From Deltaproteobacteria bacterium (GTDB lineage Bacteria; JADJOY01): 64,000 nt of DNA. The stretch covers positions 212,580-276,579 of the forward strand of contig JADJOY010000008.1 of NCBI GenBank assembly GCA_016713535.1, written 5' to 3'. A model generated the notes under the pieces. That model saw only the letters and a program-made list of their open reading frames with translations, ran no database searches and was not told the DNA's origin. The translations under genes and the position numbers were made by a program. Every line of letters starts with the position of its first letter. Position 1 is the first letter of the stretch. Shown in pieces: positions 1 to 28,318 of the stretch.

Positions 1-501
1 CGCGGGTCACGCGCACCGCCTTGTCGCCGCTCATCACCACCGCGCGCGCGACGGTCACCACCGGCATGCCGAGGAGCTCGCCGAGGAGCGCGGGCACCAC
101 GCCCTGGTCGTCGTCGGAGGCCTGGCGTCCGCACAGGATGAGGTCCGCGCCGCCGGTCTTGGTGACGTAGGCGGCGAGCAGCTTGGCGATCGCGGCGAGG
201 TCGAGCGAGGCCGCGTCGACCTGCACGTGGCCGGTCTCGTCGGCGCCGAGCGCTGCCGCCTGGCGCAGGATGCTCGCCGGGTCGGTGCCGGCCGAGACCA
301 CCGCGAGCTTCGCGGCGAGGCCGCTATCCTTCAGCCGCAGCGCGGCCTCGATGGCCTGCTCGTCGTAGGCGTTCATGAGCCGCGGGATCGCGGTCTGGGT
401 GAGGGTCTTGCCGTCGGCGCCGATCTGCAACCCGCCCGCGAGGGCGTAGTTGTTGACGGCGTCGGGATCGAGGACTTCCTTCGCGCAGACTACGATCCGC
501 A
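1..501 (-). CDS. etfB: Electron transfer flavoprotein beta subunit (EtfB), partial; the C-terminus runs off the window start
   Basis: Reverse translation from the ATG at 499-501 gives MRIVVCAKEVLDPDAVNNYALAGGLQIGADGKTLTQTAIPRLMNAYDEQAIEAALRLKDSG..., a typical EtfB N-terminus. It is absent from the ORF track because the frame leaves the window. Confidence 0.8.
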
Positions 502-513
502 TTCGTTCGCTCC

Positions 514-545
514 TCGGGCGGGGGTGAACCCCGCCCCTACGACAG
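514..545. repeat. REP-like GC palindrome with flanking CTAC(G) (gggcggggg-tgaa-ccccgccc-ctacg)
   Basis: Perfect stem-loop followed by CTACG. It belongs to a family seen at >=9 intergenic sites in this window. Confidence 0.6.
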
Positions 546-562
546 CACTCGATCGGCCGAGG

Positions 563-865
563 TCAGGGACGCCCCGGGACGCGGTTGGGTTCGTCCACCA
601 GGAACACGCTGCCCGACTCGCACCACACGCACTCGTCGGCGTAGTTGTCGGGCTTGCGCTCGAGGTCTTTGAGCAGGTACCAGCGCCACGGTGGGTCGCC
701 GTGGTCGACAAACTCGCCGCTCAGCGTGCCGGTGAACTCCTGGCGGCCCGCGTAGCGAGTGCCCAGGATCGGGCCGCCGCCATCGCACTCGGCGCGCTTG
801 CCGGCAACGCTCGCGTCGAAGCCGGGCACGGCCCGGTCCGTCGTGGGCTTGGACGACTCGTCCAC
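563..865 (-). CDS. Small hypothetical protein (100 aa) with a CVWC motif, immediately downstream of the NMO gene
   Basis: The ORF has a diverse amino-acid composition (W, Y, F, K), unlike the R/A/G-rich antisense ORFs. It is adjacent to, and co-oriented with, the upstream gene. Confidence 0.35.
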   Translation of the reverse strand: MDESSKPTTDRAVPGFDASVAGKRAECDGGGPILGTRYAGRQEFTGTLSGEFVDHGDPPWRWYLLKDLERKPDNYADECVWCESGSVFLVDEPNRVPGRP

Positions 866-867
866 GT

Positions 868-1965
868 TCAGTCGTCGCCGGTCAGGTTCTCGAACGTGGT
901 GAGCGCTTCGTCGACCACGTCCATGACGATCTGGCGAGCGGGCTTCATGGCGGTCACGAAGCTCACGCCCTGGCCGGCCGCCTCGGTCATGAGGTCACCG
1001 CGGCGGTTGTCGTTGGCGCCCTGGATGTATGGCGAGCTGAGCAGCATCTGGTAGGGGGCGGGCAGGGGCGCGGGCGCCTCGGGCTTCTTCCACTCGGTGG
1101 TCCAGGGACACTTGAGCACGCGCATGGTCATGCCGGAGATCGACTTCGAGAAGTCGGTGTCCTCGGCCGTCGAGGCGATGAGGCGCTCCTTGATGATCAT
1201 GTCGACGTCGCTCTCGCGCGACGCGAGCCACAACGTACCCGTCCACACGCCCGCGGCGCCGAGGCAGAGCGCCGCCGCCAGGTGGCGGCCGGTGGTGACG
1301 CCGCCCGCGGCGATGACGGGCTTGCCCTGCGCGATCGACACCACCTCGGGGACGATGCTGAAGGTGCCCATCTCGCCGGTGTGGCCGGCGGCGTCGAAGC
1401 CCTGCGCGATGATGCCGTCCACGCCCGCCTCGATCTCGCGCTTGGCCTGGCGGGTCTTGCCGACCAGCCCGAACACCTTGATGCCGCGCGCGTGCGCCGC
1501 GTCGAGGATGAAGGCCGGGTTGCCGAGGCCCGAGGCCAGGAGCGGCACGCGCTCCTCGAGCAGCACCTCGAGCTGGGCGCGCGCCATCTGCTGGTTGAGG
1601 CCACCCCACTGGTGCAACGCTTCCTTCCCCTTGGGCTCGGGCACGTCGTACTTCTTGTGGATCATGTCAGCGTAGTCGCGGTGACCCTGCGGGATCTTCG
1701 ACTTGAGCTCGTCGAGGCCGCCCGCGGGCGGCACCGAGGCGGGCAGCACCAGGTCCACTCCGAACGGCTTCGTGCCGATGCGATCACGGATCCACTTGAG
1801 GTCGGCCGCGATCTCGTCGGGCGTGTGCATCGCCTCGCCGAGCACCGAGAAGCCACCGGCGTTGGTGACGGCCACCACCACGTCCTTGCAGTGAGTGAAG
1901 GCGATGATCGGGTACTCGATCCCGAACATTTCGCAGAACGGGGTGTGGAGCGGATTCTTCGCCAT
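868..1965 (-). CDS. Nitronate monooxygenase / 2-nitropropane dioxygenase family (NMO, FMN-dependent) oxidoreductase
   Basis: Translation from the internal Met (MAKNPLHTPFCEMFGIEYPIIAF...GGVTTGRHLAAALCLGAAGVWTGTLWLASRES...) matches the NMO/enoyl-reductase-II TIM-barrel family. The upstream 40 codons of the longest ORF are low-complexity and discounted. Confidence 0.8.
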   Translation of the reverse strand: MAKNPLHTPFCEMFGIEYPIIAFTHCKDVVVAVTNAGGFSVLGEAMHTPDEIAADLKWIRDRIGTKPFGVDLVLPASVPPAGGLDELKSKIPQGHRDYADMIHKKYDVPEPKGKEALHQWGGLNQQMARAQLEVLLEERVPLLASGLGNPAFILDAAHARGIKVFGLVGKTRQAKREIEAGVDGIIAQGFDAAGHTGEMGTFSIVPEVVSIAQGKPVIAAGGVTTGRHLAAALCLGAAGVWTGTLWLASRESDVDMIIKERLIASTAEDTDFSKSISGMTMRVLKCPWTTEWKKPEAPAPLPAPYQMLLSSPYIQGANDNRRGDLMTEAAGQGVSFVTAMKPARQIVMDVVDEALTTFENLTGDD

Positions 1966-2077: not shown

Positions 2078-2091
2078 TGAAACATGTTCTA
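2078..2091. promoter_or_regulatory. KstR-type operator TGAAACATGTTCTA (TnnAACnnGTTnnA) in the divergent NMO / P450 intergenic region
   Basis: Exact match to the 14-bp palindromic KstR consensus, recalled from mycobacterial cholesterol-regulon work. It sits between divergently transcribed catabolic genes. Confidence 0.6.
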
Positions 2092-3316
2092 CTTGGGCCG
2101 TCAAGGCGCGAAATCCCCTGGTTTCGCGGCATTCGGAGGGTTCGGCGTGCTCGATTTCGATCCGTTCGACCCCGCCGTGATCCGCGACCCGTACCCCTGG
2201 TACGCGCGCCTGCGCGAGGAGGCGCCGCTTCACCACGTGGCGTCGCGGAACTACTGGGTGCTGACGCGCTACGCGGACGTCCGCGAGGCGTTCCGCGACC
2301 ACGAGACCTTCTCCTCCGCCCACGGAAACAGCCCCGAGCCCGGTTTCCAGCCCGGGCTCATCGCCACCGACCCGCCCAAGCACACACGGCTCCGCCGGAT
2401 CGTGCAGGCGGTGTTCACGCGGCGCGCGATCGAGGAGTCGTGGGGGGCGCGGATCCGGGCGATCTGCGAGGAGCTGATCGCGCCGTTGCTCGACGGCGAG
2501 CCGTTCGAGGCGTTCCGACGCCTCACGCTGCCGCTGCCGGTGCAGGTGGTCGTCGAGATGCTCGGCATCCCCGACGGCGACCTCGCCCAGTTCAAGGCCT
2601 GGTCGGACCACATGGTGGAGGGGGTGAGCCAGCACCTCGACGCCGACGTCCAGCGCCGCACCGCCGAGGCGTTCAAGGGGCTCAACGACTACTTTCACGA
2701 CAAGGTCCGCGAGCGCCGCACCGGCTCGGGCACCGACCTCATCACCCGCGTCGCCCAGGCGGGCGAGGGCGAGGCGCTCACCGACAAGGAAGCCTCGCAC
2801 TTCTGCATCTTGCTGCTCATCGCGGGGAACGAGACCACCACCAATCTGCTCGGCAACGCGCTGCTGGCGCTGATGGAGAATCCGGCCGAGCTGGCGAAGC
2901 TGCGCGAGCGGCGCGCGGAGCTCTTGCCGGGCGCCGTCGAGGAGATGCTGCGCTTCGGGCCGCCGTCGAAGTGCTTTTTCCGCCACACCACGCGCCCCGT
3001 CGAGATCCACGGGCAGACCATCCCCGACGGGGTGCGGGTGATGCTGACGATAGCTGCCGGCAACCGCGATCCGCGCGCGTTCCCCGAGCCGGACGCCTTC
3101 CGCGTCGACCGCGTCACCGACAACGACCACCTGTCGTTCGGCAGCGGCATCCACCACTGCCTGGGCTCGATGCTGGCGCGTCTCGAGACCGTCACCTTCT
3201 TCGACGTGCTGCTGGCGCGCGCGCGGGCGCTCGAGCCGTGCGGCGAGGCGCGGCTGGTCCACAACGTGATCGTCCGCGGTCCCGACCACCTGCCGATGCG
3301 GCTGGTGGTGGCGTGA
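2084..3316 (+). CDS. Cytochrome P450 monooxygenase
   Basis: Carries the FGSGIHHCLG heme-binding Cys loop, AGNETT I-helix and EEMLRF K-helix motifs. The true start may be the downstream GTG (about 2147). Confidence 0.85.
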   Translation: MFYLGRQGAKSPGFAAFGGFGVLDFDPFDPAVIRDPYPWYARLREEAPLHHVASRNYWVLTRYADVREAFRDHETFSSAHGNSPEPGFQPGLIATDPPKHTRLRRIVQAVFTRRAIEESWGARIRAICEELIAPLLDGEPFEAFRRLTLPLPVQVVVEMLGIPDGDLAQFKAWSDHMVEGVSQHLDADVQRRTAEAFKGLNDYFHDKVRERRTGSGTDLITRVAQAGEGEALTDKEASHFCILLLIAGNETTTNLLGNALLALMENPAELAKLRERRAELLPGAVEEMLRFGPPSKCFFRHTTRPVEIHGQTIPDGVRVMLTIAAGNRDPRAFPEPDAFRVDRVTDNDHLSFGSGIHHCLGSMLARLETVTFFDVLLARARALEPCGEARLVHNVIVRGPDHLPMRLVVA

Positions 3317-3337
3317 TGGGGCGTCACGGCCGCAGCG

Positions 3338-3432
3338 CGGGCGGGGATGAACCCCGCCCCTACGGTTCGGCGCGCCGCCGGAACGTCTCCGACCCCGCGA
3401 TCGTAGGGGCGGGCCCTGCGCCCGCCCGAATC
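3338..3432. repeat. REPIN-like doublet: two inverted REP palindromes (ggcgggg-atgaa-ccccgccc-CTACg ... cGTAG-gggcggg-ccctgc-gcccgccc)
   Basis: Two GC palindromes in opposite orientation, each flanked by GTAG/CTAC, lie between the P450 stop and the CMD gene start. Confidence 0.6.
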
Positions 3433-3445
3433 CGAGGAGCATTCG

Positions 3446-3802
3446 ATGCCATCCGAGAAGTTCGAGAAGGGCGCGAAGGTGTTCGAGGAGGTGATCGGCT
3501 TCCGCCCCCCCGAGGAGGGGCCGGCCTTCCTCAAGCTCACGATCGAGAACCTGTTCGCCGACGTGTGGGCGCGCGAAGGGCTGTCGATCCGCGACCGGCG
3601 CCTCATCACCCTCACGATCCTCCTCACGCAGATGAAGGAGGAGTCGCTGGCGCTTCACCTGCGCCAGGCGCTGAAGGGTGACCTGACCAAGAAGGAGCTC
3701 TCCGAGCTCATGATCCACGTGGCGCACTACGCGGGCTGGCCGGTCGGCCAGCTCGGCTTCGATACGTTGATGAAGACCCTCGCCGAGACGAAGAAGCCGT
3801 AG
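3446..3802 (+). CDS. Carboxymuconolactone decarboxylase (CMD/AhpD-like) family protein
   Basis: 118 aa: ...LKLTIENLFADVWAREGLSIRDRRLITLTILLTQ...HVAHYAGWP, which fits the CMD family. Confidence 0.7.
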   Translation: MPSEKFEKGAKVFEEVIGFRPPEEGPAFLKLTIENLFADVWAREGLSIRDRRLITLTILLTQMKEESLALHLRQALKGDLTKKELSELMIHVAHYAGWPVGQLGFDTLMKTLAETKKP

Positions 3803-3857
3803 CGGCGGGGCCTGTCCCCGCCCGAAGCTCCCGCCCACCGCAGAACGGAACCCGAGA

Positions 3858-5975
3858 ATGGAAGCGACTCGACAGATCTACTGGAACATCGCCTTCGGCA
3901 TGGCGATCTACGGTCTCGCCGCGGTCGCGGTGGGCTTCGCGGCTCGCGGAGTCTTCCGGCGCGTCCAGCTCTGGAAGCTCGGCGGCGCCGCGCTCCGCAC
4001 CGACCGCATGGGCGAGCGCGCCCGCGGTCTGGTCGCCGAGATCTTCGGCCATCGCCGGCTGCTGCGCGACCCGGTACCCGGCGTGGCGCACCTCTTTGTC
4101 TTCTACGGCTTCCTGGTCGAGCTGATCGCCACCGGCATGATCGCGGTCCAGGAGTGGACCGGCATCCACTATCTGAAGGGTCCGCTCTACCTCGGCTACT
4201 CGCTGGTGAGCGACGTGTTCGGGCTGCTCGGCCTCGTGGGCTGCGGGATCTTCCTTTGGCGGCGCGGGGTCCAGAAGGTGCCGCGCCTTCACACCGTGAC
4301 CGACGACTGGATCGCCATCGGGCTCTTGGCGCTGGTGTTCGCGCAGGGCTTCGTCGTCGAGGGCTTCCGCATCGCGGCCACCGAGCTGCGCCAGAACCCG
4401 GGGCTCGCGGTGTGGTCGCCGGGCGGCTTCCTGGTGGCGAAGGCGGTCTCCGGCCTGAGCGAGGGTGCGCTGCACGCGGTCCATCGCGGTGTGTGGTGGT
4501 TCCACGCGTTCACCGCGTTCGGGCTGCTCGGCTACATGGCGTACGGCAAGTTCAACCACATCTGGTTCGGCACCGCGAACATCCTGCTCCGCAACCTCGA
4601 GCCGAGCGGCAAGCTCGGCCACTTCGACATCGACAAGGCCCTCGAGAGCGACCCCGACGGCGACGTCGTGCTCGGCACCAGTCAGATCGAGCAGTACCCG
4701 TGGAAGAGTCTCCTGGACCTCGACGCCTGCATGAACTGCGGGCGCTGCGAGGCCGTGTGCCCGGCAAGCCAGAGCGGAGTGCCGCTGTCGCCGCGCAAGC
4801 TCATCCAGGACATGAAGGCTCACCTCACCGAGGTGGGCCCGGCGTCGCTGCTGGCGCGGCTCGCCAAGGGTGAAACGGTCGCTGGAGTCGCCGGTGCCGG
4901 GAACGGTGGGGCCGCCGGCGGGGATGCGGTTGCCGCACGCTCGCCGCTCTTCGGCGACGCGCCCGAGAACGCTACCGACCCGCGCCCCGCGGTCCTCGAG
5001 GTCGAGCTGTGGGGGTGTCGCACCTGCGGTGCCTGCACCCAGGAGTGCCCGGTCTTCATCGAGCACATCCCCAAGATAGTGGACATGCGCCGCCACCTGG
5101 TGATGACCGAGTCCAAGATGAGCGACGCGGCCCAGCTCATGCTCAAGAACATGGACGACCGCATGCACCCGTGGGCGAAGGCGCCCCACAACCGCGACGA
5201 GTGGTACCAGGACCTCGACGTGAAGATCCTCGGCGACGGCGCCACCGCCGAGTACCTCTACTGGGTGGGCTGTACCGGCGCGATGATCGACCGCAACATC
5301 CAGGTGACGCGCGCGATGGTGAAGGTGCTCAAGGCGGCGGGGGTGGACTTCGCGATCCTCGGCTCGGAGGAGGTCTGCACCGGCGACCCGGCGCGGCGCG
5401 TGGGCGGCGAGTTCACGTTCCAGCTCTGCGCCAAGCAGAACATCGAGACGCTCTCGAACTACGGCGTCAAGAAGATCATCACCACCTGCCCGCACTGCTT
5501 CAACAGCTACAAGAACGAGTACCCGGACTTCGGCGGCAACTACGAGGTGGTGCACCACACCCAGCTCATCGAGGAGCTGATCCGCGCCGGCAAGCTCAAG
5601 CTCAAGAGCGGGCTCGAGTCGCTCACCTACCACGACCCCTGCTACCTGGGGCGCCACAACGGTGTGTACGAGGCGCCGCGCGCGGTCCTCGACACCCTCG
5701 CGGCACCCGGCGGGCGGATCGAGATGGAACGCAGCCAGTCGAAGTCGCTCTGTTGTGGTGCGGGCGGCGGTTACGCGTGGATGGACGACGACCCCACCAC
5801 CCGCATCAACCACATGCGGCTCGCCGACGTGAAGGAGTGCGGCGCCAAGACCGCGGCGGTGTCGTGCCCGTTCTGCATGCAGATGTTCGACGACGCGCTC
5901 AAGACGCTCGATCCCGGCAAGACCATCCGCGCCGCGGACATCGCCGAGCTGGTGGCGGAGGCGCTCGAGGCGTGA
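3858..5975 (+). CDS. Membrane-bound Fe-S oxidoreductase, EtfD-like. It has an N-terminal NarI/HdrE-like transmembrane domain, 4Fe-4S ferredoxin motifs and two CCG (Cys-rich) domains
   Basis: N-terminal TM helices; CMNCGRCEAVCP and CRTCGACTQECP ferredoxin motifs; two CCG-type Cys-rich segments (CTGDP...TTCPHCFNS and CYLGRHN...CCGAGGG...SCPFCMQM). The architecture matches mycobacterial Rv0338c (EtfD). Confidence 0.8.
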   Translation: MEATRQIYWNIAFGMAIYGLAAVAVGFAARGVFRRVQLWKLGGAALRTDRMGERARGLVAEIFGHRRLLRDPVPGVAHLFVFYGFLVELIATGMIAVQEWTGIHYLKGPLYLGYSLVSDVFGLLGLVGCGIFLWRRGVQKVPRLHTVTDDWIAIGLLALVFAQGFVVEGFRIAATELRQNPGLAVWSPGGFLVAKAVSGLSEGALHAVHRGVWWFHAFTAFGLLGYMAYGKFNHIWFGTANILLRNLEPSGKLGHFDIDKALESDPDGDVVLGTSQIEQYPWKSLLDLDACMNCGRCEAVCPASQSGVPLSPRKLIQDMKAHLTEVGPASLLARLAKGETVAGVAGAGNGGAAGGDAVAARSPLFGDAPENATDPRPAVLEVELWGCRTCGACTQECPVFIEHIPKIVDMRRHLVMTESKMSDAAQLMLKNMDDRMHPWAKAPHNRDEWYQDLDVKILGDGATAEYLYWVGCTGAMIDRNIQVTRAMVKVLKAAGVDFAILGSEEVCTGDPARRVGGEFTFQLCAKQNIETLSNYGVKKIITTCPHCFNSYKNEYPDFGGNYEVVHHTQLIEELIRAGKLKLKSGLESLTYHDPCYLGRHNGVYEAPRAVLDTLAAPGGRIEMERSQSKSLCCGAGGGYAWMDDDPTTRINHMRLADVKECGAKTAAVSCPFCMQMFDDALKTLDPGKTIRAADIAELVAEALEA

Positions 5976-6394
5976 GCGCCACGGTGGAGGAGCGTCTCGC
6001 GCGGCTCGAGGACCTGGAAGTGATCCGCGACCTCGCGCGCCGCTACGCCGACGCGGTGTGGCGGCGCGACGTCGAGGGCGCGATCGCGCTCTTCACCGAG
6101 GACGGCGTGATGGACACCGGCGATCGCCCGCCCATCCGTGGGCGCGCCGCGCTCGGCGAGGCCTATCGCGCGATGGTGGGCGGCGCGAACGAGTTCCTGC
6201 CGTTCGTGGCCAACCACGTGATCGACCTCGACGGCGATCGCGCTACGGGCCGCTGCTACCTCGACCTGCGCGCCACCGTGGCGGGCGAGCGCCGGATCGG
6301 CGGTGGCCACTACGAAGACGTGTACAGGCGCACGACGGGCGGCTGGCGCTTCGCTGCGCGCAAGCTCGTGCTGCGCTTCCTCGCGCCCTACTGA
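5972..6394 (+). CDS. SnoaL-like / NTF2-like (ketosteroid-isomerase fold) protein
   Basis: The GTG start overlaps the upstream stop (GTGA). The sequence ...IRDLARRYADAVWRRDVEGAIALFTEDGVMDTGD...GGWRFAARKLVLRFL is an NTF2-like pattern. Confidence 0.6.
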   Translation: MSATVEERLARLEDLEVIRDLARRYADAVWRRDVEGAIALFTEDGVMDTGDRPPIRGRAALGEAYRAMVGGANEFLPFVANHVIDLDGDRATGRCYLDLRATVAGERRIGGGHYEDVYRRTTGGWRFAARKLVLRFLAPY

Positions 6395-8357: not shown

Positions 8358-9668
8358 ATGATCGAGATCGACGCAGACGCCGAGCAACGCCCCTCCGACG
8401 AGCCCGGCTGGTACGCGTATTACGTGTTGGGCCTGCTCTGGCTCGTCTACGTCTTCAACTTCGTCGATCGCCAGGTGCTCGCGATCCTCCTCGAGCCGAT
8501 CAAGAAGGACCTCGGCGCCTCCGACACCGCAATGGGGTTCTTGAGCGGCTTCGCGTTCGCACTCTTCTACACCGTTGCGGGGATCCCGATCGCGCGCTGG
8601 GCGGACCGCGGCACGCGCCGCACCATCATCACGATCGGCCTCGCGCTGTGGAGCGGCATGACCGCGCTCTCGGGGATGGCGCGCGGGTTCGTGGAGCTGG
8701 CGGCTGCGCGGGTCGGGGTGGGGGTCGGCGAGGCGGCCGGCAGCCCTCCCGCGCACTCGCTCCTCTCCGACTACTTCCCGCCGCACCGGCGCGCGACCGC
8801 GCTCGGGATCTACGCCGCTGGGGTGTACGTGGGGGTGATGCTCGCGTTCGTGGGCGGCGGCTACGTGGCGACCCACTTCAGCTGGCGCACGGCGTTCCTG
8901 CTGGTGGGGTTGCCGGGGCTTCCGCTCGCGGCGCTGGTGCGGCTCACGGTGCGCGAACCGGCGCGCACCGCGGGACAAGGGGTGGCGGCGAGCGACGACC
9001 GCCCGAGCCTGGGAGAGGTGCTGCGTTTCCTCGCGAGCAAGCGCTCGTTCGTGCTGGTGGTGGTGGCGGCGGCGTTCAACACCCTCGCCGGCTACGCGGT
9101 GCTGACCTGGGGCGCCTCGTTCCTGCGCCGGGTCCACGCGATGCCGATCGGGCAGGTGGGGACCTCGCTCGGGCTGATCGTGGGGATCGGCGGCACGCTC
9201 GGCTCGTGGCTGGGCGGCGTGCTCGCCGATCGGCTCGGTCAGCGCGATCCGCGGTGGTACGGGCTCGTCTCCGCGATCGTGTCGGCGCTCGGCGTGCCGT
9301 TCGCGGTGGCGTTCCTGCTCGCGCCGAGCGCCACGACGGCGCTGGTGGCTTTCACGCCCTATTACGTGCTGGCGCAGATGTACATCGGCGCGATGCTCGC
9401 GGTGACGCAGTGCGTTGTGACGCCGCGGATGCGCGCGACCGCCTCCGCGGTGGTGCTCTTCGTGCTCAACCTGTTCGGCCTCGGGCTCGGCCCGCTCGTG
9501 GTGGGTGCCCTCAACGACGCGCTCAAGGCGCGCCTCGGTGACGTCGCGATCCGCTACTCGCTGCTCGGCGTGGTCGCGGTGAGTGCCCTCTCGGTGCCCT
9601 TTTTCGTCGCGGCAGCCCGGCACATGCGCCGTGATCTGGGGGCGGGACCGGTCACTCGAGGTCGATGA
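8358..9668 (+). CDS. MFS transporter (Spinster-like subfamily)
   Basis: MIEIDADAE...WYAYYVLGLLWLVYVFNFVDRQVLAILLEPIKKDLGASDTAMGFLSGFAFALFYTVAGIPIARWADRG... has a 12-TM MFS signature. The upstream part of the long ORF is Arg-rich junk. Confidence 0.85.
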   Translation: MIEIDADAEQRPSDEPGWYAYYVLGLLWLVYVFNFVDRQVLAILLEPIKKDLGASDTAMGFLSGFAFALFYTVAGIPIARWADRGTRRTIITIGLALWSGMTALSGMARGFVELAAARVGVGVGEAAGSPPAHSLLSDYFPPHRRATALGIYAAGVYVGVMLAFVGGGYVATHFSWRTAFLLVGLPGLPLAALVRLTVREPARTAGQGVAASDDRPSLGEVLRFLASKRSFVLVVVAAAFNTLAGYAVLTWGASFLRRVHAMPIGQVGTSLGLIVGIGGTLGSWLGGVLADRLGQRDPRWYGLVSAIVSALGVPFAVAFLLAPSATTALVAFTPYYVLAQMYIGAMLAVTQCVVTPRMRATASAVVLFVLNLFGLGLGPLVVGALNDALKARLGDVAIRYSLLGVVAVSALSVPFFVAAARHMRRDLGAGPVTRGR

Positions 9669-13820: not shown

Positions 13821-14258
13821 TCACCCGCGCGAGCGGATGAGCTTGGCGACGGCGGCGTCGATCAGGCCCGGGTCGCGGAACGGGTAGGTGGGCATCAGGT
13901 TGACGAGGATGTCGATGCGCACACCGAGCTGCTCACGAGCCGTGGCCAGCGTCCAGCGGATCGCGCCCTCGAGCGACGAGACGTCCGCGGCGAGATCGTC
14001 GGGGCGCAGCGCCGGCACGAGCGCGCCGGCGGCGCGCGCCACCGCGGCGATCTCGGCGTCGTCGGTGCTCACCACCACGGTGCGCACGGTGCGCGCGGCG
14101 CGTGCGGCGCGGATCGTGTGCACGATCAGCGGCTCGCCGCCGAGCTCGGCGAGCGCCTTGCGCGGCACACCCTTCGAGCCGCCCCGGGCGGGGATCATGG
14201 CAGCGACGTCGAAGGGGCCTTCCGGTCCTTGCACGAGCGGGAGAGGTTCGGGGGTCAT
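13821..14258 (-). CDS. Acylneuraminate / CMP-sugar cytidylyltransferase (NeuA/KdsB family) N-terminal domain, truncated by an apparent frameshift
   Basis: MTPEPLPLVQGPEGPFDVAAMIPARGGSKGVPRKAL...VVVSTDD...LMPTYPFRDPGLIDAAV shows the IPARxxSKxxPxK motif and the PTxP-R motif. At 145 aa it is too short for the family. The continuation appears in another frame toward 13500. Confidence 0.6.
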   Translation of the reverse strand: MTPEPLPLVQGPEGPFDVAAMIPARGGSKGVPRKALAELGGEPLIVHTIRAARAARTVRTVVVSTDDAEIAAVARAAGALVPALRPDDLAADVSSLEGAIRWTLATAREQLGVRIDILVNLMPTYPFRDPGLIDAAVAKLIRSRG

Positions 14259-17319: not shown

Positions 17320-18625
17320 TCAGCGGGTCGGGTCCTCGTGGAAGTGGGACGGCTCTTTGTTGGCGAGCCGGGAGCGGGCCTGCGACGCGGCGCGTTTGCC
17401 GCTCAGGTACGCGGCCTCGACGGTCGCGGCGATCGGCGAGCTCTCGGTGGCAGAGCCGGCCCAGAAGAGCGCACCGGTGTCGGGCGCGGCGAGATCGCGC
17501 CGCGCACCGACGCCGCCGGGACGGAGGAACGTGTAGCCGCCGAGCGCGAAGGGGTCGGTCGACCAGTCGATGCGCTTGAAGCCGGTGAGCAGGTCCTTGG
17601 GCTTTGCAGCCGGGAAGTGGCGCACCAGGTCGGTCGCGACCAGCTCGAGCGCCGCCTTGTCGTCGAGAGAGGCGACGTGCGCCGCGCGCGGCCCCGTGAA
17701 GTAGGCAGTCAGCACCGGCCAGCGCCGGGGCGCCCCGTAGAAGACGTTCCAGAACAGCGTCACCGGGCCCACCGCGCAGGCGAGGGTGTTCATGGCGTCG
17801 GGCCAGAACGGCTCGCGGAAGCGCAGCAGGAGCTTGCTGACGGGGCCCATGACGATGCGCTCGAGGGCGCTCCTCTTGGTAGCGGGGAGCTCGGGCTCGA
17901 AGCGGATATTGCCCGACTTGAGCACCCCCACCGGCAGGGTGGTGATCGCCGTACGCGCCTCGATCTCCTCGCCGGAGACGCCGCGGACCGTGACCTGCTC
18001 GCGGCGGAAGCGGATCGACTCGACGACGAAGCCGTGCTGCACGTCGAGGGGTTTGCCCATGTGCTGGATCACCGCGTCGTAGCCCGAGGCGACGCGGTGG
18101 TTCACGCCGCTCTCGAGGTGGACGACGCCGTCGTCGACGAGCCCGAGCAGGCCGACCTCGTCCAGGCTCGCGGGCAGGTGAGCGGTGAGCACCATCGATG
18201 CGAGCGCGCGGCCGCGGCCGCGGTAGCCCTTGCGATCGAGGAACTCGCGGCCCCGAGATGTCGGGCGGACGGACGCGGCGGATCTGGTGGAGGATCGGGA
18301 AGGTCGGCCAGATCTCGGGGTGCAGGAGGATCAGCGGCAACCAGTTGGTCTTGCCGCCGACGTTGAACATGAAGCCCTTCATGTTGGGGGTGGGACGGGT
18401 GGCGACACCCGCGGCGCGGACGTCGGGCCAGGTCGCGGCCCCCACGCCGTGCACGAACTCGGCGCCCGCCTCGACCGGATCCGAGACCAGGTCCCGGATC
18501 GACCACACCCGCCCCCCGACGCGGTCACGCGCTTCCAGCACTCGCACCGAGAGCCCGTGCTGTGCGAGGTCGCGTGCCGCCGCGATCCCGGCCATCCCGG
18601 CGCCAATCACCACCGCATCCAGCAT
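17320..18625 (-). CDS. FAD-dependent amine oxidase (flavin-containing) with an apparent frameshift near 18200-18240
   Basis: The N-terminus in one frame reads MLDAVVIGAGMAGIAAARDLAQHGLSVRVLEARDRVGGRVWS... (GxGxxG plus the amine-oxidase signature). The C-terminus in another frame reads ...TGALFWAGSATES...AATVEAAYLSGKRAA. Neither frame is complete on its own. Confidence 0.7.
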
Positions 18626-19521: not shown

Positions 19522-20667
19522 TCACACGATGCAGGGTGTCGGCGCGTCCAGGACGGTGCTCGCGACCAGCTCCTCGAGGTAGCGCGTGTCCCACCACGAG
19601 AGCTGCCAGTGCTTGGCGCGCCGGAAGAAGAGCTGGATGTCGTGCTCGATGGTGAAGCCGATGCCGCCGTGGACCTGCTCGGCCTTGGCGGTGACGTCGC
19701 GGAACATCTGGCACGCGAAGAGCTTGGCCATGGGGGCCAGACGCTCGATCGGCCGCCCGGTTGCGCGCGCCCACGCGGCCTCGTAGACCAGCGTACGGCC
19801 GCCGCTCACCAGCGTCGCGCAGTCGGCGAGGTAGTGGGCGATCGCCATGAAGGCACCGATCGGCTTGCCGAACTGCTCGCGGATCTTGGCGTAGTGGTTG
19901 GTCATCTCGAGGGCGCGCTCGGCGCCGCCCGCCGCCTGCGCGGCAAGGTAGATGATTCCCTCGAGGAGCGTGTCGCTCCAGGTCTTCCAGCCGCTGCCGG
20001 CGGCGCCGATGCGGTCCGCGGTGGACACCCGCACGTTGCTGAAGGTGACCTGGTACTGGCAGTCGGAGCCGAGGGTCTTCTGCTGGGTGAGGGTGACGCC
20101 AGGCGCCTTGGGATCGACCAGCACGAGATCGATCGCATCGGGAGCGTCGCCGGTGCGGACGAGCACGAGAAGGCGGGTGGCGGACGACGCGAACTGGACG
20201 TGGCGCTTGGTGCCGTCGAGGACCAGCGAGCCGCCATCGGCCTTCGCGCGCAGCGCGACACCCTTGGGGCCGTAGCCGCGGTCGGGCTCGAGCCAGGCGG
20301 GGGTGAGGATCACCTCGCCGGACGCGATCTTCGGCAGCCACGCCTTCTTCTGCTCGTCCGAGCCCGCGCGCAGGATCGCCCCCGCGCTCGCGACACAGCT
20401 CACGAAGTGGGGCGACGGCGCCAGCGAGCGGCCGAACTCCTCGTACACCACGACACCTTCGATCGCCGACTGGCCGGCGCCTCCGTAGGCCTCGGGCAAG
20501 GTGAGCCCGAGGACGCCGAGCTCGCCGAGCTTCGCCCACAGCTCGGGCGAGTAGCCGGTGGGATCGTCCTCCAGGGTGCGCAGGGTCGCGAGGGTGGCGT
20601 ACTGGTCGCACACGCCGCGCACCATGTCGCGCAGCATGTTCTGCTCGTCGTTGAATTCCAGATCCAT
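19522..20667 (-). CDS. Acyl-CoA dehydrogenase
   Basis: 381 aa: ...YGGAGQSAIEGVVVYEE...VLDGTKRHVQFAS...QVHGGIGFTIEHDIQLFFRRAK shows ACAD family hallmarks. Confidence 0.9.
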   Translation of the reverse strand: MDLEFNDEQNMLRDMVRGVCDQYATLATLRTLEDDPTGYSPELWAKLGELGVLGLTLPEAYGGAGQSAIEGVVVYEEFGRSLAPSPHFVSCVASAGAILRAGSDEQKKAWLPKIASGEVILTPAWLEPDRGYGPKGVALRAKADGGSLVLDGTKRHVQFASSATRLLVLVRTGDAPDAIDLVLVDPKAPGVTLTQQKTLGSDCQYQVTFSNVRVSTADRIGAAGSGWKTWSDTLLEGIIYLAAQAAGGAERALEMTNHYAKIREQFGKPIGAFMAIAHYLADCATLVSGGRTLVYEAAWARATGRPIERLAPMAKLFACQMFRDVTAKAEQVHGGIGFTIEHDIQLFFRRAKHWQLSWWDTRYLEELVASTVLDAPTPCIV

Positions 20668-20766
20668 CCGGTACCTCTCGCGTTGCTCTGGCGCGGCCGG
20701 TCCCTCGGCCGCCGCCGTTTCGTTGGACCGCCGCGAGGGACCGCGGTCGGTCAGCCGGTCAGCGAA

Positions 20767-21249
20767 TCACGGCTTCCACTGGGCTCCCTCGCGGGTCCAG
20801 GGGTTGTCGCTCGCGGTGGCGGGGAGCGCGACCCGCACCTTGCACTCCGTCATGAGCTTCTCGCCGACGCCGAGCTTCACGTCGAGGCTCGCCCAGCCGC
20901 AGCCCACGTCGTCGGTCTCGACCTTCTCGACCGTGGCGCGGAACACCATACGATCGCCCGGGAACACCGAGTCCTTCATGCGGAACTTCATGCGGCCGAT
21001 GCGCCCGTGAGGCCCGGTCCAGTCGGTGACGTAGCGCTCGAACCAGGCGGCCTGGTTGGGCGTGTTGAGGAAGATGTCCTGCACGCCGTTGCGGTTCACC
21101 GCGAAGTCCTTGTCGTGGTGCATGGGGCGGAAGTCGCGGGTGGCGAGGGCGCCGAGGACCACGGTGGTGGCGCTGACGTCGAAGGCGAGCTCGGGGACGA
21201 CGTCGCCGGCCCGGACGCGATCGAGGGTGAGCTTCACGGGCGTGGTCAT
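20767..21249 (-). CDS. MaoC-like (R)-specific enoyl-CoA hydratase, hot-dog fold (ChsH2-like partner)
   Basis: MTTPVKLTLDRVRAGDVVPELAFDVSATTVVLGALATRDFRPMHHDKDFA... is a MaoC dehydratase. A 4-bp overlap with the upstream hot-dog gene. Confidence 0.8.
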   Translation of the reverse strand: MTTPVKLTLDRVRAGDVVPELAFDVSATTVVLGALATRDFRPMHHDKDFAVNRNGVQDIFLNTPNQAAWFERYVTDWTGPHGRIGRMKFRMKDSVFPGDRMVFRATVEKVETDDVGCGWASLDVKLGVGEKLMTECKVRVALPATASDNPWTREGAQWKP

Positions 21250-21761
21250 CGGTTCCCCCGTCGATAGCCGAGGCCGGTGTAGATCTCCTTGCCGACCATC
21301 GTGCCGTCCTGGTTGAAGTACTCGACGTCGATCACCCAGAAGCGCCCGAGGCCGAGCTTGGTCTGCTTCAGGTCGCTCACGGAGCGCAGCACCTGGTGGG
21401 CGCGCAGGTGGTCGCCGGGGCGGATCGGCGCGTAGAAGATGACCTCGTTGTCGGTCATCACCGCCTCGGGCAGCTCGAGCCTCTCCTTGAGGTCGAAGTG
21501 GATCTGCAGCGGCAGGCGCTGCTTGGTGCGTCCGGGCGCCCAGTGGTGAGGGCGGAACCACACCGACATCATGGTGGGCGGAGTCATGAGGCCGCCGGTG
21601 ATCTCGCGGGCCACGGCCTCGTCCCAGAAGAGTGGGTTGCCGTTCTGGGTGGAGGAGCAGCTCGAGTAGACGTAGCCCTTCTCGACCTCGAACTCGGGCT
21701 CTTCCTCGTAGCGGACCTGGTCGATCCAGCCCTTCACTTCGTCGGGTAGCGGCTCGGACAT
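21246..21761 (-). CDS. Hot-dog fold dehydratase N-terminal-type subunit (ChsH1-like partner)
   Basis: 171 aa, ...NPLFWDEAVAREITGGLMTPPTMMSVWFRP...; a hot-dog family protein paired with the downstream MaoC gene. Confidence 0.75.
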   Translation of the reverse strand: MSEPLPDEVKGWIDQVRYEEEPEFEVEKGYVYSSCSSTQNGNPLFWDEAVAREITGGLMTPPTMMSVWFRPHHWAPGRTKQRLPLQIHFDLKERLELPEAVMTDNEVIFYAPIRPGDHLRAHQVLRSVSDLKQTKLGLGRFWVIDVEYFNQDGTMVGKEIYTGLGYRRGNR

Positions 21762-21808
21762 CGTGATCTCCGGTCAGCGGCGGAACGGGTGGGCGAAGGC
21801 TTCGATCG

Positions 21809-22951
21809 TCATTCGACCGCGCCCGCGGCGCGCAGCTCCGCGATGCGCTCGGGCGTGACGCCGGCGGCGGCCAGAAGGGCGTCGGAGTCGGTCTCGGTGG
21901 CGGCGCGAGCGGCGTGCGGCGGGAGCTCCTCGCGCCCGCCGGCGAGGACCTCGCTCACCTGACGGAAGGCGCCGCGCTCGGGGTGCCGGGCCTGGACGAA
22001 GGCGCGACGGGCAACGAACTGATCGTCCTCGGCGACCTCGGGGATGGTGCTCACCGGCGCGACACAGGTGTCCTTGGCGGCGAGCTCGGCGATCCACGCG
22101 TCGCGATCGCGGGTGGCGAAGGCGGCGCGGAACGCGGCGCGGATGTCCTCTTGCTTCGCGTCGTCGAGCTGGTGCGGGATCCACTCGGCGCAGCCGAGGA
22201 GCTTGCAGAGGTTGGCGAAGAACGCGGGCTCGATCGCGCCCACCGAGAGCCAGCGGCCGTCGGCGCAGGCGTAGACGTCGTAGCAGGCGTAGCGGCCGGT
22301 GAGGATGTCGCCGCCGGGGCCGGGCTCCTCGCCGGTGGCGAGGAAGCGATCGACGTGGAGCGACATGAGGTGGAGGACGCCGTCGGCGACCGAGACGTCG
22401 AGCCACGCGCCCGCGCCGCTGCGCTCGCGCTGGAGGAGCGCGGCGAGGATCGCGATGACCGCGTGCATGCCCCCCGCGGCGCTGTCGGCGACGGTGGCGC
22501 CGGGGATCGCGGGGCCACCGTCCTCGCGCCGTCCTGAGCAGTGAAGGAACCCGCCGACGGCGAGATAGTTGATGTCGTGGCCGGCCCAGGTCGCGCGCGG
22601 CCCGTCCTGGCCGTAGCCGCTCGTCGAGCACAGGATCGCGCGCGGGTTCACGGCGCGGAGCGCCTCCCAGCCGATGCCGAGGCGCGCCACCACGCCGGGC
22701 CGGTAGCTCTCGATCACGACGTCGGCCTTCGCGGCCAGCGCGAGGAACGCCTCCTTGCCCTCGGCAGCCTTGAGGTCGATGCGGACGCGCTTCATGCCGC
22801 GCCCGGCGCCGTAGGAGAAGAAGGGAGGTTCGATCTGCACCGAACCCTTCTTCGCGGTCGGGCTCACCTTCACGACGGTCGCGCCGTAGTCGGCGAGGAT
22901 CCGCGAGGCGCGCGCCGCCGGACCGACGCTCGCCAGGTCGAGCACCGTCAC
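21809..22951 (-). CDS. Family III CoA-transferase (CaiB/BaiF/Frc family)
   Basis: MTVLDLASVGPAARASRILADYGATVVKVSP...IESYRPGVVARLG...CSTSGYGQDGP shows the family III motifs. The true start may be slightly upstream. Confidence 0.85.
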   Translation of the reverse strand: MTVLDLASVGPAARASRILADYGATVVKVSPTAKKGSVQIEPPFFSYGAGRGMKRVRIDLKAAEGKEAFLALAAKADVVIESYRPGVVARLGIGWEALRAVNPRAILCSTSGYGQDGPRATWAGHDINYLAVGGFLHCSGRREDGGPAIPGATVADSAAGGMHAVIAILAALLQRERSGAGAWLDVSVADGVLHLMSLHVDRFLATGEEPGPGGDILTGRYACYDVYACADGRWLSVGAIEPAFFANLCKLLGCAEWIPHQLDDAKQEDIRAAFRAAFATRDRDAWIAELAAKDTCVAPVSTIPEVAEDDQFVARRAFVQARHPERGAFRQVSEVLAGGREELPPHAARAATETDSDALLAAAGVTPERIAELRAAGAVE

Positions 22952-22994
22952 GCCCCTCGAGCCGAACCAGCGAGCCGGTCATGGGGCCGCGCCT

Positions 22995-23075
22995 CCCCGG
23001 CGTGAAGGGCGCGACGGTCGGGCTCGCGGGGGGACGGAGCCCCCCGCGCTACGAACGGCGCCGTAGCGACGGGGG
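22995..23075. repeat. REPIN-like doublet (gcgggggg-acggag-cccccgc-gCTACg ... cGTAGc-gacggggg-ttccat-cccccgtc)
   Basis: Two inverted GTAG-anchored palindromes separated by about 10 bp, in the gap between the CoA-transferase start and the ACAD stop. Confidence 0.6.
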
Positions 23076-23140
23076 TTCCATCCCCCGTCGCCTGGTGCAC
23101 GAGGCAGATCGGTCGAAGTCATGGAGGCCGCTCGGTTCAC

Positions 23141-24322
23141 TCAGTAATTCCTCGGAAGCCCCAGCCCGCGCCGCGCGATGATGTTTTTCTGGATCTCCGA
23201 CGCGCCGCCGCCGATGGTGTCGATCACCGTGTAGCGGTAGGTCTTCTCGGCGCGGCCCTTCATGGGGGCCTCCTCGGTGCCGACGCGGAGCTGGCTGCCG
23301 GGACTCGCGAGGTCCATCGAGGCGTCGGCGACGCGCTTCGAGAGCTCGGTGGCGTAGAGCTTGTACGTCGAGGCCTCGACGGTGGGCGGCGCTCCGCCCC
23401 GCATCGCGGCGCTCACGAATTTGAGGCCGAGGACGCGTGCGACCTCGGTCTGGGTGACGAGCTGGGCGATCTGGCTGCGCACCAGCGGATCGGCGCTGAG
23501 CGGTTCGTCGTCGCGGGTGGCGGTACGCGCCCACTCGCACAGCACCTCGACGCGCGCCTGGATCGGCGCGAACGTGAACATCGTGAAGCGCTCGAGGTCG
23601 AGCGCCTCCGAGATGTACTGGAAGCCCTTGCCGAGCTCGCCCACGCGATAGTCGTCTCCCACGTACACGTCGTCGAAGAACACCTGGTTGGTGATCTCGT
23701 CGCCGATGGTGGGCATCGACTGGACGGTGAGGCCCTTGGCCTTCATCGGCAGCAGGAAGAGCGTGATGCCGGCGTGCTTGGGGGCGTCCGGGTTGGTACG
23801 CGCGCCCACCCAGTACCAGTCGGCGAAGTGGGCCGAGGTGGTGAAGATCTTCTGCCCGTTGAGGCGCCAGCCCTCAGCATCGCGCACCGCGCGGAGCTGC
23901 ATGTTGGCGGCGTCGGAGCCCGCCTCCGGCTCGCTGTACCCGATCGCGAACTCGACCTCGTTGCGCAGGATCTTGGGCAGGAACTCGCCCTTGAGCTTGG
24001 CGCTGCCGTGGCGGATCAGGGTCTTGCCGATGATACCGACGCCCTTGCCGATCTGCGGCGCACCGCGCCCCGCGAGACGCTCGTTCAGGAGGTACTCGTA
24101 GACGCCGCTCTGCTCCGAGCCGCCGTGCTCCCTGGGCCAGGTGAGACCGAGCCAGCCGCGGTCGGCGATCTTGCGCATGAACGCGCGCCGCGGCGGCGTG
24201 TCGACGAGCTGCGCCATGTTCTCGCGCGTGACGTCCATGACCTCGGGATCGCGGTTCTCGTCGAGGAACCGGTCCACGTCCGCGAGGAAGTCGTGCTCTG
24301 CGTCGGTGAAGGCGAAGTCCAC
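23141..24322 (-). CDS. Acyl-CoA dehydrogenase
   Basis: 393 aa: ...WLGLTWPREHGGSEQSGVYEYLLNERLA...GYSEPEAGSD...GGGASEIQKNIIARRGLGLP is canonical for ACADs. Confidence 0.9.
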   Translation of the reverse strand: MDFAFTDAEHDFLADVDRFLDENRDPEVMDVTRENMAQLVDTPPRRAFMRKIADRGWLGLTWPREHGGSEQSGVYEYLLNERLAGRGAPQIGKGVGIIGKTLIRHGSAKLKGEFLPKILRNEVEFAIGYSEPEAGSDAANMQLRAVRDAEGWRLNGQKIFTTSAHFADWYWVGARTNPDAPKHAGITLFLLPMKAKGLTVQSMPTIGDEITNQVFFDDVYVGDDYRVGELGKGFQYISEALDLERFTMFTFAPIQARVEVLCEWARTATRDDEPLSADPLVRSQIAQLVTQTEVARVLGLKFVSAAMRGGAPPTVEASTYKLYATELSKRVADASMDLASPGSQLRVGTEEAPMKGRAEKTYRYTVIDTIGGGASEIQKNIIARRGLGLPRNY

Positions 24323-24367
24323 GGCGGCCCCCGGAGATCCTGTGGCAAGCGTCTCTGTTCGACCCGC

Positions 24368-24790
24368 TCAGGGAACGACGAAGCTCATGGCGCCCTCGAC
24401 GGCGACGGCGCCAGCCTGATTGGTGCACACCAGCTCGACGTCCACGCACCGCTCGCCGTTCGCCTCGTACTTGCGGGCGACCTTGCCCGAGCAGGTGATG
24501 AGGTCGCCGGGGAATAGCGGCGTCTTCCAGCGCACCTTGGTGCGACGCACGTTCTCGGGGCCGAGCCAGTTGGTGGCGTAGGTGTTGAGCACGCCGGCCT
24601 GATACATGCCGACCACCAGCGGGCGGGTGAAGCCGGACGCCTGCGCGAAGTCGACGTCGTGGTGGATCGGATTGAAGTCACCCGAGGCGCCCTGATACCG
24701 CACCACGTCGGTCAAGGTGATGGGGCCGACGGTCCAGGGCTCCGGTCCCTGGCCCTCGACGAGGCTCTCCCACGCGATGGCCGACGTCAT
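24368..24790 (-). CDS. MaoC-like enoyl-CoA hydratase, hot-dog fold
   Basis: MTSAIAWESLVEGQGPEPWTVGPITLTDVVRYQGASGDFNPIHHDVDFAQASGF... A 4-bp ATGA overlap with the upstream hot-dog gene. Confidence 0.8.
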   Translation of the reverse strand: MTSAIAWESLVEGQGPEPWTVGPITLTDVVRYQGASGDFNPIHHDVDFAQASGFTRPLVVGMYQAGVLNTYATNWLGPENVRRTKVRWKTPLFPGDLITCSGKVARKYEANGERCVDVELVCTNQAGAVAVEGAMSFVVP

Positions 24791-25245
24791 CAGCCGCCCT
24801 CCTCGGGGTTCTTCGCGGTCTCGACGCCGGTGAGACGCGCCTCGGCCACCAGGTTGCCGGCTTCGTCGCGGTACTCGGTGACCATCACCGCGAACGTCAT
24901 GGTTCCCCCGCGCTTGCCCTGCTTCTCGAAGATCTTCTCGATCCGCGAGGTGCCGATGAGCCGCGTGCCGGCCCGGGGCGGTGGCCCGTGGAACACGAAC
25001 TCCTGCTCGGCGTGCATGCCGCGCTTCGGGTCCATCCGCACCTTTTCCCACGGGTTGCTGCCGGGGACGCGGGTCTCCCAGAAGAACGCGGTGGTGAGAA
25101 AGGTGGGCGGGCAGGCCGGATGGTGGCCCTCGAAGTGAGCGGGGTGCGTCGACTTCGTCGCGGTCGCGAACTCGTGGATCTTGCCGCGCTCGACGTCGAG
25201 CGCGAAGGGAACGCCGGTCTCGCCGAGTGCCGCCTTGTCGACCAT
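24790..25245 (-). CDS. Hot-dog fold dehydratase N-terminal-type subunit
   Basis: 151 aa: MVDKAALGETGVPFALDVERGKIHEFATATKSTHPAHFEG... pairs with the downstream MaoC gene. This is the second copy of the module. Confidence 0.75.
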   Translation of the reverse strand: MVDKAALGETGVPFALDVERGKIHEFATATKSTHPAHFEGHHPACPPTFLTTAFFWETRVPGSNPWEKVRMDPKRGMHAEQEFVFHGPPPRAGTRLIGTSRIEKIFEKQGKRGGTMTFAVMVTEYRDEAGNLVAEARLTGVETAKNPEEGG

Positions 25246-25303
25246 GGATCGCCTCGCTGCCGCCTTCTCGGTCGCGGGTCGCGCGCGCGGCGCGGCCCGA
25301 GCC

Positions 25304-27038: not shown

Positions 27039-27055
27039 CGCCGGGACCGAGCGAC

Positions 27056-28305: not shown

Positions 28306-28318
28306 AGAGCCGCGCGCC

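Follow-up and report, generated by a model that had tools for sequence, protein, structure and literature searches.

Within a 64,000-nucleotide stretch of contig JADJOY010000008.1, from an assembly labelled Deltaproteobacteria bacterium (the whole stretch is hereafter called the window), we describe two closely similar 14-bp dyad sites which, on the basis of sequence comparison, we consider to be working operators of one dimeric helix-turn-helix repressor. This repressor would be encoded outside the window and is most likely an acyl-CoA-sensing protein of the TetR family, a reading to which we assign a probability of roughly 0.6. Four start codons stand within 8-112 nt of the sites, which occupy two divergent spacers adjoining lipid-catabolic genes: the first separates the gene of an NMO-family flavoenzyme (NMO; 868-1965, minus strand) from that of a cytochrome P450 (P450a; 2147-3316, plus strand), and the second separates an operon headed by an SDR gene (ending at 26086, minus strand) from the gene of an F420-type luciferase-like oxidoreductase (LLM; starting at 26196, plus strand). 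We read them as functional operators because they form conserved islands in spacers that have otherwise diverged, and because the motif recurs upstream of distant LLM orthologues. A dimeric helix-turn-helix repressor of the TetR kind would be the most economical binder of such sites.

Both sites fit the core TnnAACnnGTTnnA exactly, in agreement with an initial annotation of this stretch, which had recognized in them the palindrome of the regulator KstR but had placed the second site one base low, at 26094-26107. Their positions are as follows.

2078-2091, TGAAACATGTTCTA (minus-strand reading TAGAACATGTTTCA): operator 1, preceding the P450a start by 55 nt and the NMO start (1965) by 112 nt
26095-26108, TAGAACACGTTTCA: operator 2, preceding the SDR start (26086, minus strand) by 8 nt and the LLM start (26196) by 87 nt

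Compared in the same orientation, operators 1 and 2 (TAGAACATGTTTCA vs TAGAACACGTTTCA) are identical at 13 of 14 positions, and the dyad of the window sites is symmetric at 12 of its 14 positions. Across the 64 kb the match pattern TNNAACNNGTTNNA has three occurrences, whereas 100 dinucleotide-preserving shuffles averaged 0.04 and never exceeded 1; the comparison with shuffled sequence that the initial annotation had suggested thus sets the motif apart from background. A weight matrix made from 13 related sites, in all of which the AAC/GTT core is unchanged, singled out operators 1 and 2, at 27.9 and 25.6 bits, as the window's sole strong intergenic matches, the next intergenic one reaching 10.0 bits with the wrong spacing. 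The third pattern match, TAGAACGCGTTCGA at 44856-44869, which the initial annotation did not list, lies 92 codons into the gene encoding the large subunit of methylmalonyl-CoA mutase, where it spans the codons TCG AAC GCG TTC TAC of a conserved peptide that includes ESNAFY. We rejected this match as a third operator and set it aside as a coding coincidence, produced by the ESNAFY codons, because the conserved peptide almost forces the motif in a genome whose third codon positions are ~94% GC. The case serves as a warning that the coding sequence of high-GC genomes can generate the motif.

Conservation of operator 2 was examined by scanning with the LLM protein, taking one genome per species, which gave 80 loci and 1.29 Mb of sequence. 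One of these, L001, from a metagenome-assembled genome (MAG) labelled 'bacterium STL-UNK1', is syntenic with the window from 16 to 37.7 kb at ~81% nucleotide identity, and a 31-bp block around operator 2, GGTCATGACGAAAATAGAACACGTTTCACTT, is 100% identical in the two. Ten loci (L001-L004, L011, L023, L030, L031, L069 and L080) carry the motif 39-105 bp ahead of the LLM orthologue, and the LLM proteins they encode are 64-88% identical to that of the window. The MAGs that carry these sites are labelled Proteobacteria, Deltaproteobacteria, Myxococcota and, in the case of L069, Gammaproteobacteria, with L001 labelled simply 'bacterium'; in a further locus, L047, the site is found one gene further upstream of LLM. 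The sequence flanking the sites is unrelated between distant loci, and their consensus reads T[GA]TAACGTGTTTCA. There are 25 motif matches in the LLM loci overall, ten of them within 105 bp upstream of the LLM start, where ~0.1 would be expected from the motif rate in the remainder of the same loci.

In nine of the ten site-bearing loci (all except L001), as well as in L047, the partner that diverges from LLM is not the SDR operon but a gene for a ~1156-aa protein with POR and DUF6537 domains, an indolepyruvate/2-oxoacid:ferredoxin oxidoreductase (IOR)-like enzyme, with the site 12-57 nt from its start. The LLM/IOR pair, rather than the SDR operon, therefore emerges as the predicted regulon's conserved core, as judged from these gene arrangements. 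An identification of this partner as IcmF, a protein of similar length encoded in the window at 48340-51816, was rejected, tblastn giving no match and Pfam returning POR and DUF6537. A second site is present in L030, 58 nt upstream of an NMO-like gene. Among the 80 loci, those from Acidimicrobiia and Actinomycetes with an LLM orthologue have no site upstream of LLM, and some of them hold classical TAGAACACGTTCTA sites elsewhere.

For operator 1, relatives were gathered through a metagenome scan with P450a and lookups of NMO homologues. The window's own NMO protein had no exact entry among the public contigs consulted, and its genome is therefore absent from that collection. The NMO/P450a arrangement was recovered in four distinct contigs (L081, which is the same contig as L085, together with L083, L084 and L086), with NMO proteins 90-98% identical to that of the window, and the operator-1 14-mer is exact in each. 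When the NMO/P450a spacers are aligned, a 53-bp indel and scattered substitutions surround a conserved island of ~36 bp that holds operator 1; a block GGTTTC..CCAAAATGAAACATGTTCTACTT and, after it, CGTCAAGGC are invariant. Operator 1 would appear to belong to the lineage in which an operon encoding P450a, a CMD protein and EtfD lies beside the NMO gene, because the site is missing from the loci of NMO orthologues at 76-80% identity (L088, L089 and L094-L096), where the divergent gene instead encodes a fused CoA-transferase.

These data bear directly on the possibility that the matches are due to chance and have no function, which we regard as scarcely credible. Coding constraint alone explains the match at 44856, and a match at position 1739 of L001 is likewise intragenic and is not conserved in the window. 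Against this, the two operators are both intergenic and nearly identical to one another at an expectation of 0.04 matches, both are invariant in relatives whose spacers have diverged, and about ten distant orthologous loci have the motif in the corresponding position; chance is effectively refuted by this conservation.

Genes were called by codon-usage score and annotated with Pfam, giving 59 genes in a window of ~71% GC. The divergent placement of both sites and the identity of the flanking genes, which the initial annotation had read from the letters (NMO, P450, EtfD-like and etfB at the first site; SDR, hot-dog, acyl-CoA dehydrogenase, LLM, CYP125-like and SnoaL at the second), were both upheld, the former by gene calls and Pfam and the latter by Pfam and structure matches. 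The four operons are listed below, with Pfam as the source of annotation except where another is given.

2-1965, minus strand: left operon of operator 1 (Pfam and gene order in relatives)
868-1965, minus strand: NMO-family flavoenzyme
563-865, minus strand: conserved 100-aa protein without a Pfam match, between NMO and etfB
2-502, minus strand: etfB, running off the window edge
2147-6394, plus strand: right operon of operator 1 (Pfam; same gene order in L083)
2147-3316, plus strand: P450a, its start most likely the GTG at 2147, with GGAGG ahead
3446-3802, plus strand: CMD/AhpD-like protein
3858-5975, plus strand: membrane EtfD-like Fe-S oxidoreductase of 705 aa, with two CCG domains and Fer4 domains
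5972-6394, plus strand: SnoaL_4 protein
19522-26086, minus strand: left operon of operator 2 (Pfam and NCBIfam; fully syntenic in L001)
25304-26086, minus strand: SDR (NF005880, 428 bits vs a 336-bit cut-off)
24790-25245, minus strand: hot-dog protein
24368-24790, minus strand: MaoC hydratase
23141-24322, minus strand: acyl-CoA dehydrogenase, ACAD1
21809-22951, minus strand: family-III CoA-transferase
21246-21761 and 20767-21249, minus strand: two hot-dog proteins
19522-20667, minus strand: second acyl-CoA dehydrogenase, ACAD2
26196-28705, plus strand: right operon of operator 2
26196-27038, plus strand: LLM (TIGR03619, 244.5 bits vs a 166.9-bit cut-off)
27056-28305, plus strand: P450b, frameshifted, of the CYP125/126/124 group
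28337-28705, plus strand: SnoaL_2 protein

The small protein encoded at 563-865 has counterparts of 88-107 aa between NMO and etfB in all relatives examined (L083, L086, L088, L094, L095 and L096). Furthermore, the NMO operon continues in L083 and L086 with genes for etfA, a DUF35/ChsH2-type OB-fold protein, a lipid-transfer-type thiolase and an enoyl-CoA hydratase; the corresponding thiolase of L088 scores 418 bits against NF004715, compared with a cut-off of 424 bits.

The placement of operator 2 points to a simple mode of action. Because SDR has a complete N-terminus when compared with its family model, and its start is only 8 nt away, the operator must coincide in part with either the promoter or a leader that is very short. 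If a sigma-70-like TTTACA-17-TACACT element on the minus strand serves as the promoter, the operator would fall at ~+7 to +20. On the NMO-upstream side of operator 1, a conserved TTGACG lies 6 nt from the site on the minus strand. We propose that one dimer bound in each of the short divergent spacers would shut off both flanking operons, and that the repressor is likely to fall in the class that includes KstR, FadR and PsrA. The four operons may then constitute a single oxidation module, in which the P450 and LLM oxygenases would activate a hydrophobic substrate, the beta-oxidation set of two-subunit acyl-CoA dehydrogenases and hot-dog hydratases would shorten a methyl-branched or bulky acyl-CoA chain, and the electron-transferring flavoprotein (ETF) together with EtfD would hand electrons to the quinone pool, with a CoA thioester of the pathway as the presumed inducer that releases the repressor. 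Of this scheme, the existence of the sites, their excess over chance, their conservation and the gene families are shown, whereas we infer the family of the repressor, that it represses rather than activates, what induces it and which class of substrate is involved. A palindromic operator in a divergent promoter is a textbook mechanism, met here in an uncultured lineage, and the gene content fits a beta-oxidation/ETF regulon.

Several results weigh against this reading. With Pfam applied to the 59 genes and six-frame searches using the TetR_N profile and KstR (the M. tuberculosis protein, checked to be identical to PDB 5ua2), neither a TetR nor a KstR, which would join TetR_N to the C-terminal domain PF17925, was found in the window, in line with the initial annotation's remark that the regulator was not there. 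Six-frame searches of 82 related loci (L001-L082) likewise found no TetR or KstR homologue adjoining any site, and Pfam found no regulator in ~8 kb of left flank taken from relatives at 90-98% identity, a walk beyond the window that also passes a methyltransferase and a subtilase fragment. Where TetR genes accompany related clusters, the palindromes are different ones, namely AACTAACGATCGTTAGTT in L004 and GAAACGATACGTATCGTTTC in L088 and L094. At site 1 no sigma-70-like promoter was found, promoters in this lineage not being confidently mappable, and repression, rather than activation, is a mode assigned by analogy. Finally, the asymmetry of the sites is itself conserved, with GTTTCA always facing LLM and the other half varying as T[AGC][GT]AAC, which could mean that part of the 'palindrome' is a promoter element and not half of a symmetric operator.

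This last point leads to an explanation in which the sites are operators of a non-TetR regulator, or composites of a -10-like element (TATAAC/TAGAAC) and a GTTTCA half-site recognized by a non-TetR factor, a view that we hold to be unlikely. It would account for a GTTTCA that is nearly invariant beside a half (TATAAC, TGTAAC, TCTAAC or TAGAAC) that resembles a -10 hexamer, for the A-rich tract ahead of the site in most loci and for the conserved TTGACG 6-12 nt from both window sites; in addition, a TetR is linked to site-bearing loci only in L004 and L011, whose TetR has a palindrome of its own. It sits less well with the good dyad symmetry of the window sites and the invariant core of the 13 matrix sites, and among the site-bearing loci no MerR, Lrp, GntR or other regulator is consistently linked. 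The sole regulator gene of the window, of MerR type (36997-37860), is co-transcribed with a desaturase gene 9 kb away, and no site lies close to it. An explanation at the RNA level, such as a riboswitch, was dropped, as Rfam identified no RNA family in the window.

Individual candidates for the binder were also considered. In L004, a perfect 18-bp palindrome, AACTAACGATCGTTAGTT (3455-3472, minus strand), immediately precedes the TetR gene with which a TetR-P450 operon begins, and is probably that protein's own operator, distinct from the motif studied here. This TetR matches chain 2fbq ('probable transcriptional regulator') weakly, at E = 3.5e-11, an entry which we take to be PsrA. The L004/L011 TetR was rejected as the motif binder on account of this palindrome and its weak similarity to generic TetRs, and that of L036 was rejected as having no solved relative at E <= 1e-6. 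The TetRs of L088, L094 and L095 were rejected as generic by NCBIfam, with spacers that carry GAAACGATACGTATCGTTTC and not the studied motif; none of the TetRs tested is named KstR by NCBIfam. Genes of ~144 aa beside the IOR-like genes were rejected as Lrp/AsnC regulators for want of such a Pfam domain.

The cluster of the more distant NMO relatives has features of its own. In L088 and L094, genes for a TetR, a KstD-family flavoprotein (622 bits vs a 789-bit NCBIfam cut-off), an acyl-CoA ligase and CoA-transferase A and B adjoin the operon of NMO, ETF, DUF35 and thiolase genes, and the CoA-transferase A subunit tested from the 76-80% relatives scored far below its subfamily cut-off. The perfect 20-bp palindrome GAAACGATACGTATCGTTTC lies in the spacer between the FadD ligase and CoA-transferase genes (L088, 15606-15864; L094, 19848-20113), and is apparently a different operator of a related cluster.

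Returning to the proposed TetR-type repressor, the question arises of whether it could be KstR itself. KstR, a dimer of the TetR type, has been shown experimentally to bind 29-bp probes containing TAGAAC(N2)GTTCTA, a site that partly overlaps the -10 of KstR's own promoter and represses that promoter (Kendall et al. 2007, PMC1995591). This full palindrome is shared by the kstR promoters of actinomycetes (PMC1995591). The core across its regulon is TnnAACnnGTTnnA, with further intergenic instances numbering 16 in M. tuberculosis and 31 in M. smegmatis, and the regulator is described as conserved within actinomycetes (PMC1995591). With the KstR operators of Mycobacterium and Rhodococcus, our sites share a 14-bp palindrome of that core, the AAC-N2-GTT arrangement and an exact TAGAAC half-site in one instance, as well as an intergenic and often divergent position beside lipid-catabolic genes and an overlap with promoter or leader that implies direct repression. 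They differ in the second half-site, which here is GTTTCA, two mismatches from GTTCTA, and the lineage consensus T[GA]TAACGTGTTTCA departs from TAGAAC-N2-GTTCTA.

The encoded proteins show a similar mixture. The P450 at 27056-28305, for which the initial annotation had proposed a comparison with CYP125 and CYP142, has as its best solved-structure match CYP125MRCA, a reconstructed CYP125 ancestor (8vxi, 6e-116), followed by CYP126 (2e-101), CYP124 (5e-76), CYP125 (~1e-67 to 1e-70) and then CYP142, such that 'CYP125-like' is a fair description of P450b at the level of the group, membership of which assigns no substrate. Its frame is broken, with the first 18 codons in one frame and the remainder in another, through the loss of one C from a C-run at ~27109-27113; the L001 orthologue is intact, and the frameshift may be either a homopolymer sequencing error or the mark of a recent pseudogene. 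P450a, by contrast with P450b, is not CYP125/142-like and not of the C26-monooxygenase type, its best solved-structure matches being 6gmf and CYP109-type enzymes. Among solved structures, the best match of ACAD1 is ChsE4, one partner in the M. tuberculosis ChsE4-ChsE5 pair (4x28_A, 1.4e-57), along with Tcur3483. In NCBIfam, ACAD1 and ACAD2 resemble PimC and PimD, which make up a two-subunit dehydrogenase as its large and small subunit, respectively, at scores below the cut-offs. The MaoC protein bears only a weak resemblance to ChsH1 (9e-7) and is nearer to HadB (6e-10). NMO has a sub-threshold FabK match only, and no IpdC-type match, in NCBIfam.

The EtfD-like identification of the 705-aa membrane protein is solid: residues 20-698 align with 9ojn_A ('Iron-sulfur-binding reductase', 1042 aa) at E = 3e-110. 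We presume, from the related literature, that 9ojn is the mycobacterial EtfD whose structure was solved recently. In M. tuberculosis, EtfD is needed for fatty-acid beta-oxidation (PMC8593149).

Taken against the mycobacterial cholesterol side-chain module (Cyp125, ChsE4-ChsE5, ChsH1-ChsH2 and Ltp2) with EtfAB-EtfD, the window thus offers a P450b of the right group, ACAD1, paired hot-dog and MaoC proteins and an EtfD homologue, and in relatives the flank just left of the window adds the DUF35 (ChsH2-type) and lipid-transfer thiolase pair. It differs in the HadB-leaning MaoC and in the presence of an F420-type LLM, SnoaL proteins, a CMD protein and a family-III CoA-transferase. Pfam found no KshA/B, KstD, HsaA-D, IpdAB, FadD3, Mce4 or acyl-CoA-ligase families among the 59 called genes, and none of the side-chain-type proteins tested from the window passed an NCBIfam model with a steroid-pathway name. 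The resemblance to cholesterol side-chain enzymes is confined to the level of families. Overlap with the KstR regulon is partial: a CYP125-group P450, a two-subunit acyl-CoA dehydrogenase with a ChsE4-like member and a MaoC-type hydratase are held in common, whereas mce4, hsa, ksh and kstD are absent from the 64 kb.

We consider it quite doubtful that a true KstR orthologue binds these sites and that the operons serve the breakdown of sterol side chains, as the KstR regulon of mycobacteria and Rhodococcus does. The exact core, the affinities of P450b and ACAD1, the DUF35/thiolase pair and the EtfD link are in its favour. However, the 5ua2-validated query found no KstR homologue in the window or the loci searched; a database search with KstR was uninformative for this lineage, giving only mycobacterial-type matches among those listed (at least 120). 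The organism itself seems to lie outside the actinomycetes, its closest relatives being MAGs that bear the labels 'bacterium STL-UNK1', Deltaproteobacteria, Myxococcota and Binatia, although such taxon labels are weak evidence of lineage. The literature searched contained no mention of KstR together with Myxococcota, Binatia/Binatota or Deltaproteobacteria. In other MAGs, moreover, the site pairs LLM with the IOR-like oxidoreductase, which is not a steroid gene, and P450b is frameshifted in this sequence. We know of no description of either LLM or the IOR-like oxidoreductase as a KstR target. The KstR-like regulon put forward in the initial annotation consequently stands in part: the operators are non-random and conserved and the theme of lipid or branched-chain catabolism is sustained, while neither KstR orthology, given the missing regulator and the non-actinomycete relatives, nor sterol specificity, given the missing ring-degradation and Mce4 genes, P450a, the MaoC protein and the IOR-like partner, is supported. 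In the strict sense, 'KstR' and 'sterol' are on balance unlikely, and the annotation's alternative wording, 'branched-lipid side-chain degradation', better fits the evidence.

The operators fit a broader class of TetR-type fatty-acid and acyl-CoA repressors equally well. PsrA recognizes the consensus G/CAAAC-N2-4-GTTTG/C, a short palindrome of the GAAAC/GTTTC type. The regulons of Proteobacterial fatty-acid repressors, as Kazakov and co-workers reportedly described them in 2009, include etfBA and ETF-quinone oxidoreductase. The PsrA/FadP repressors of Proteobacteria, which belong to the TetR family, have regulons that cover beta-oxidation (PMC5343134). Systems of the PsrA, FadP, DesT and FadR type resemble ours in having a short dyad operator upstream of beta-oxidation and ETF genes and an unlinked or loosely linked TetR repressor serving dispersed beta-oxidation operons. 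Their effector is an acyl-CoA or fatty acid, comparable to the CoA thioester presumed here. They differ in the exact motif, and no PsrA or FadP orthologue was identified here.

A more speculative extension, to which we give little credence, is that these sites represent a KstR-like code outside Actinobacteria, whereby an unlinked TetR-type repressor reading T[AG]nAAC-N2-GTTTCA would co-ordinate LLM, CYP125-group P450, ChsE-like acyl-CoA dehydrogenase, IOR-like and ETF/EtfD genes in a lineage related to Myxococcota and Binatia. The genes would apparently be shared with Acidimicrobiia through horizontal transfer, and would serve an unrecognized pathway for sterol, hopanoid or isoprenoid side chains. 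LLM of the TIGR03619 family is common to MAGs labelled Myxococcota/Deltaproteobacteria and Acidimicrobiia/Actinomycetes, at 62-72% identity, a distribution that suggests horizontal exchange between phyla and the use of F420 outside Actinobacteria. If this extension were true, the regulon would mark a side-chain catabolism not recognized before in abundant soil and sediment bacteria. Should the main prediction of an operator pair serving one repressor hold, the 14-bp motif with its four co-regulated operons would provide a handle on lipid catabolism in uncultured high-GC bacteria, and operators of the KstR type would not be limited to actinomycetes. A caution for metagenome annotation also follows, namely that steroid degradation is not proved by a KstR-motif match, even one that adjoins CYP125-like and ChsE-like genes.

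Elsewhere in the window, two B12-dependent acyl-CoA mutase systems adjoin one another at 41973-51816, neither of them with an operator. The first consists of MeaB and the large and small subunits of methylmalonyl-CoA mutase (41973-47252, minus strand), and the second is an IcmF-type fusion of 1158 aa with B12-binding, MeaB and mutase domains (48340-51816, plus strand); the pair fits the branched-chain acyl-CoA theme. ARAGORN called a tRNA-Thr at 9169-9250, inside an MFS transporter gene, and a 101-nt tRNA-Pro at 22996-23096, in the gap between the ACAD1 and CoA-transferase genes, both of which are probably false positives because Rfam at its gathering threshold gives no tRNA anywhere in the window. 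The ATPase gene of an ABC transporter (37955-38727, minus strand) is split into two overlapping open reading frames, with positions 2-74 of the Pfam model ABC_tran falling in 38392-38727 and positions 83-137 in 37955-38395, which together with the P450b frameshift hints at indel errors in the assembly. The genes for an amine oxidase (17320-18195), a cytidylyltransferase (13821-14198) and the mutase small subunit (45888-47252) appear to be cut short as well.

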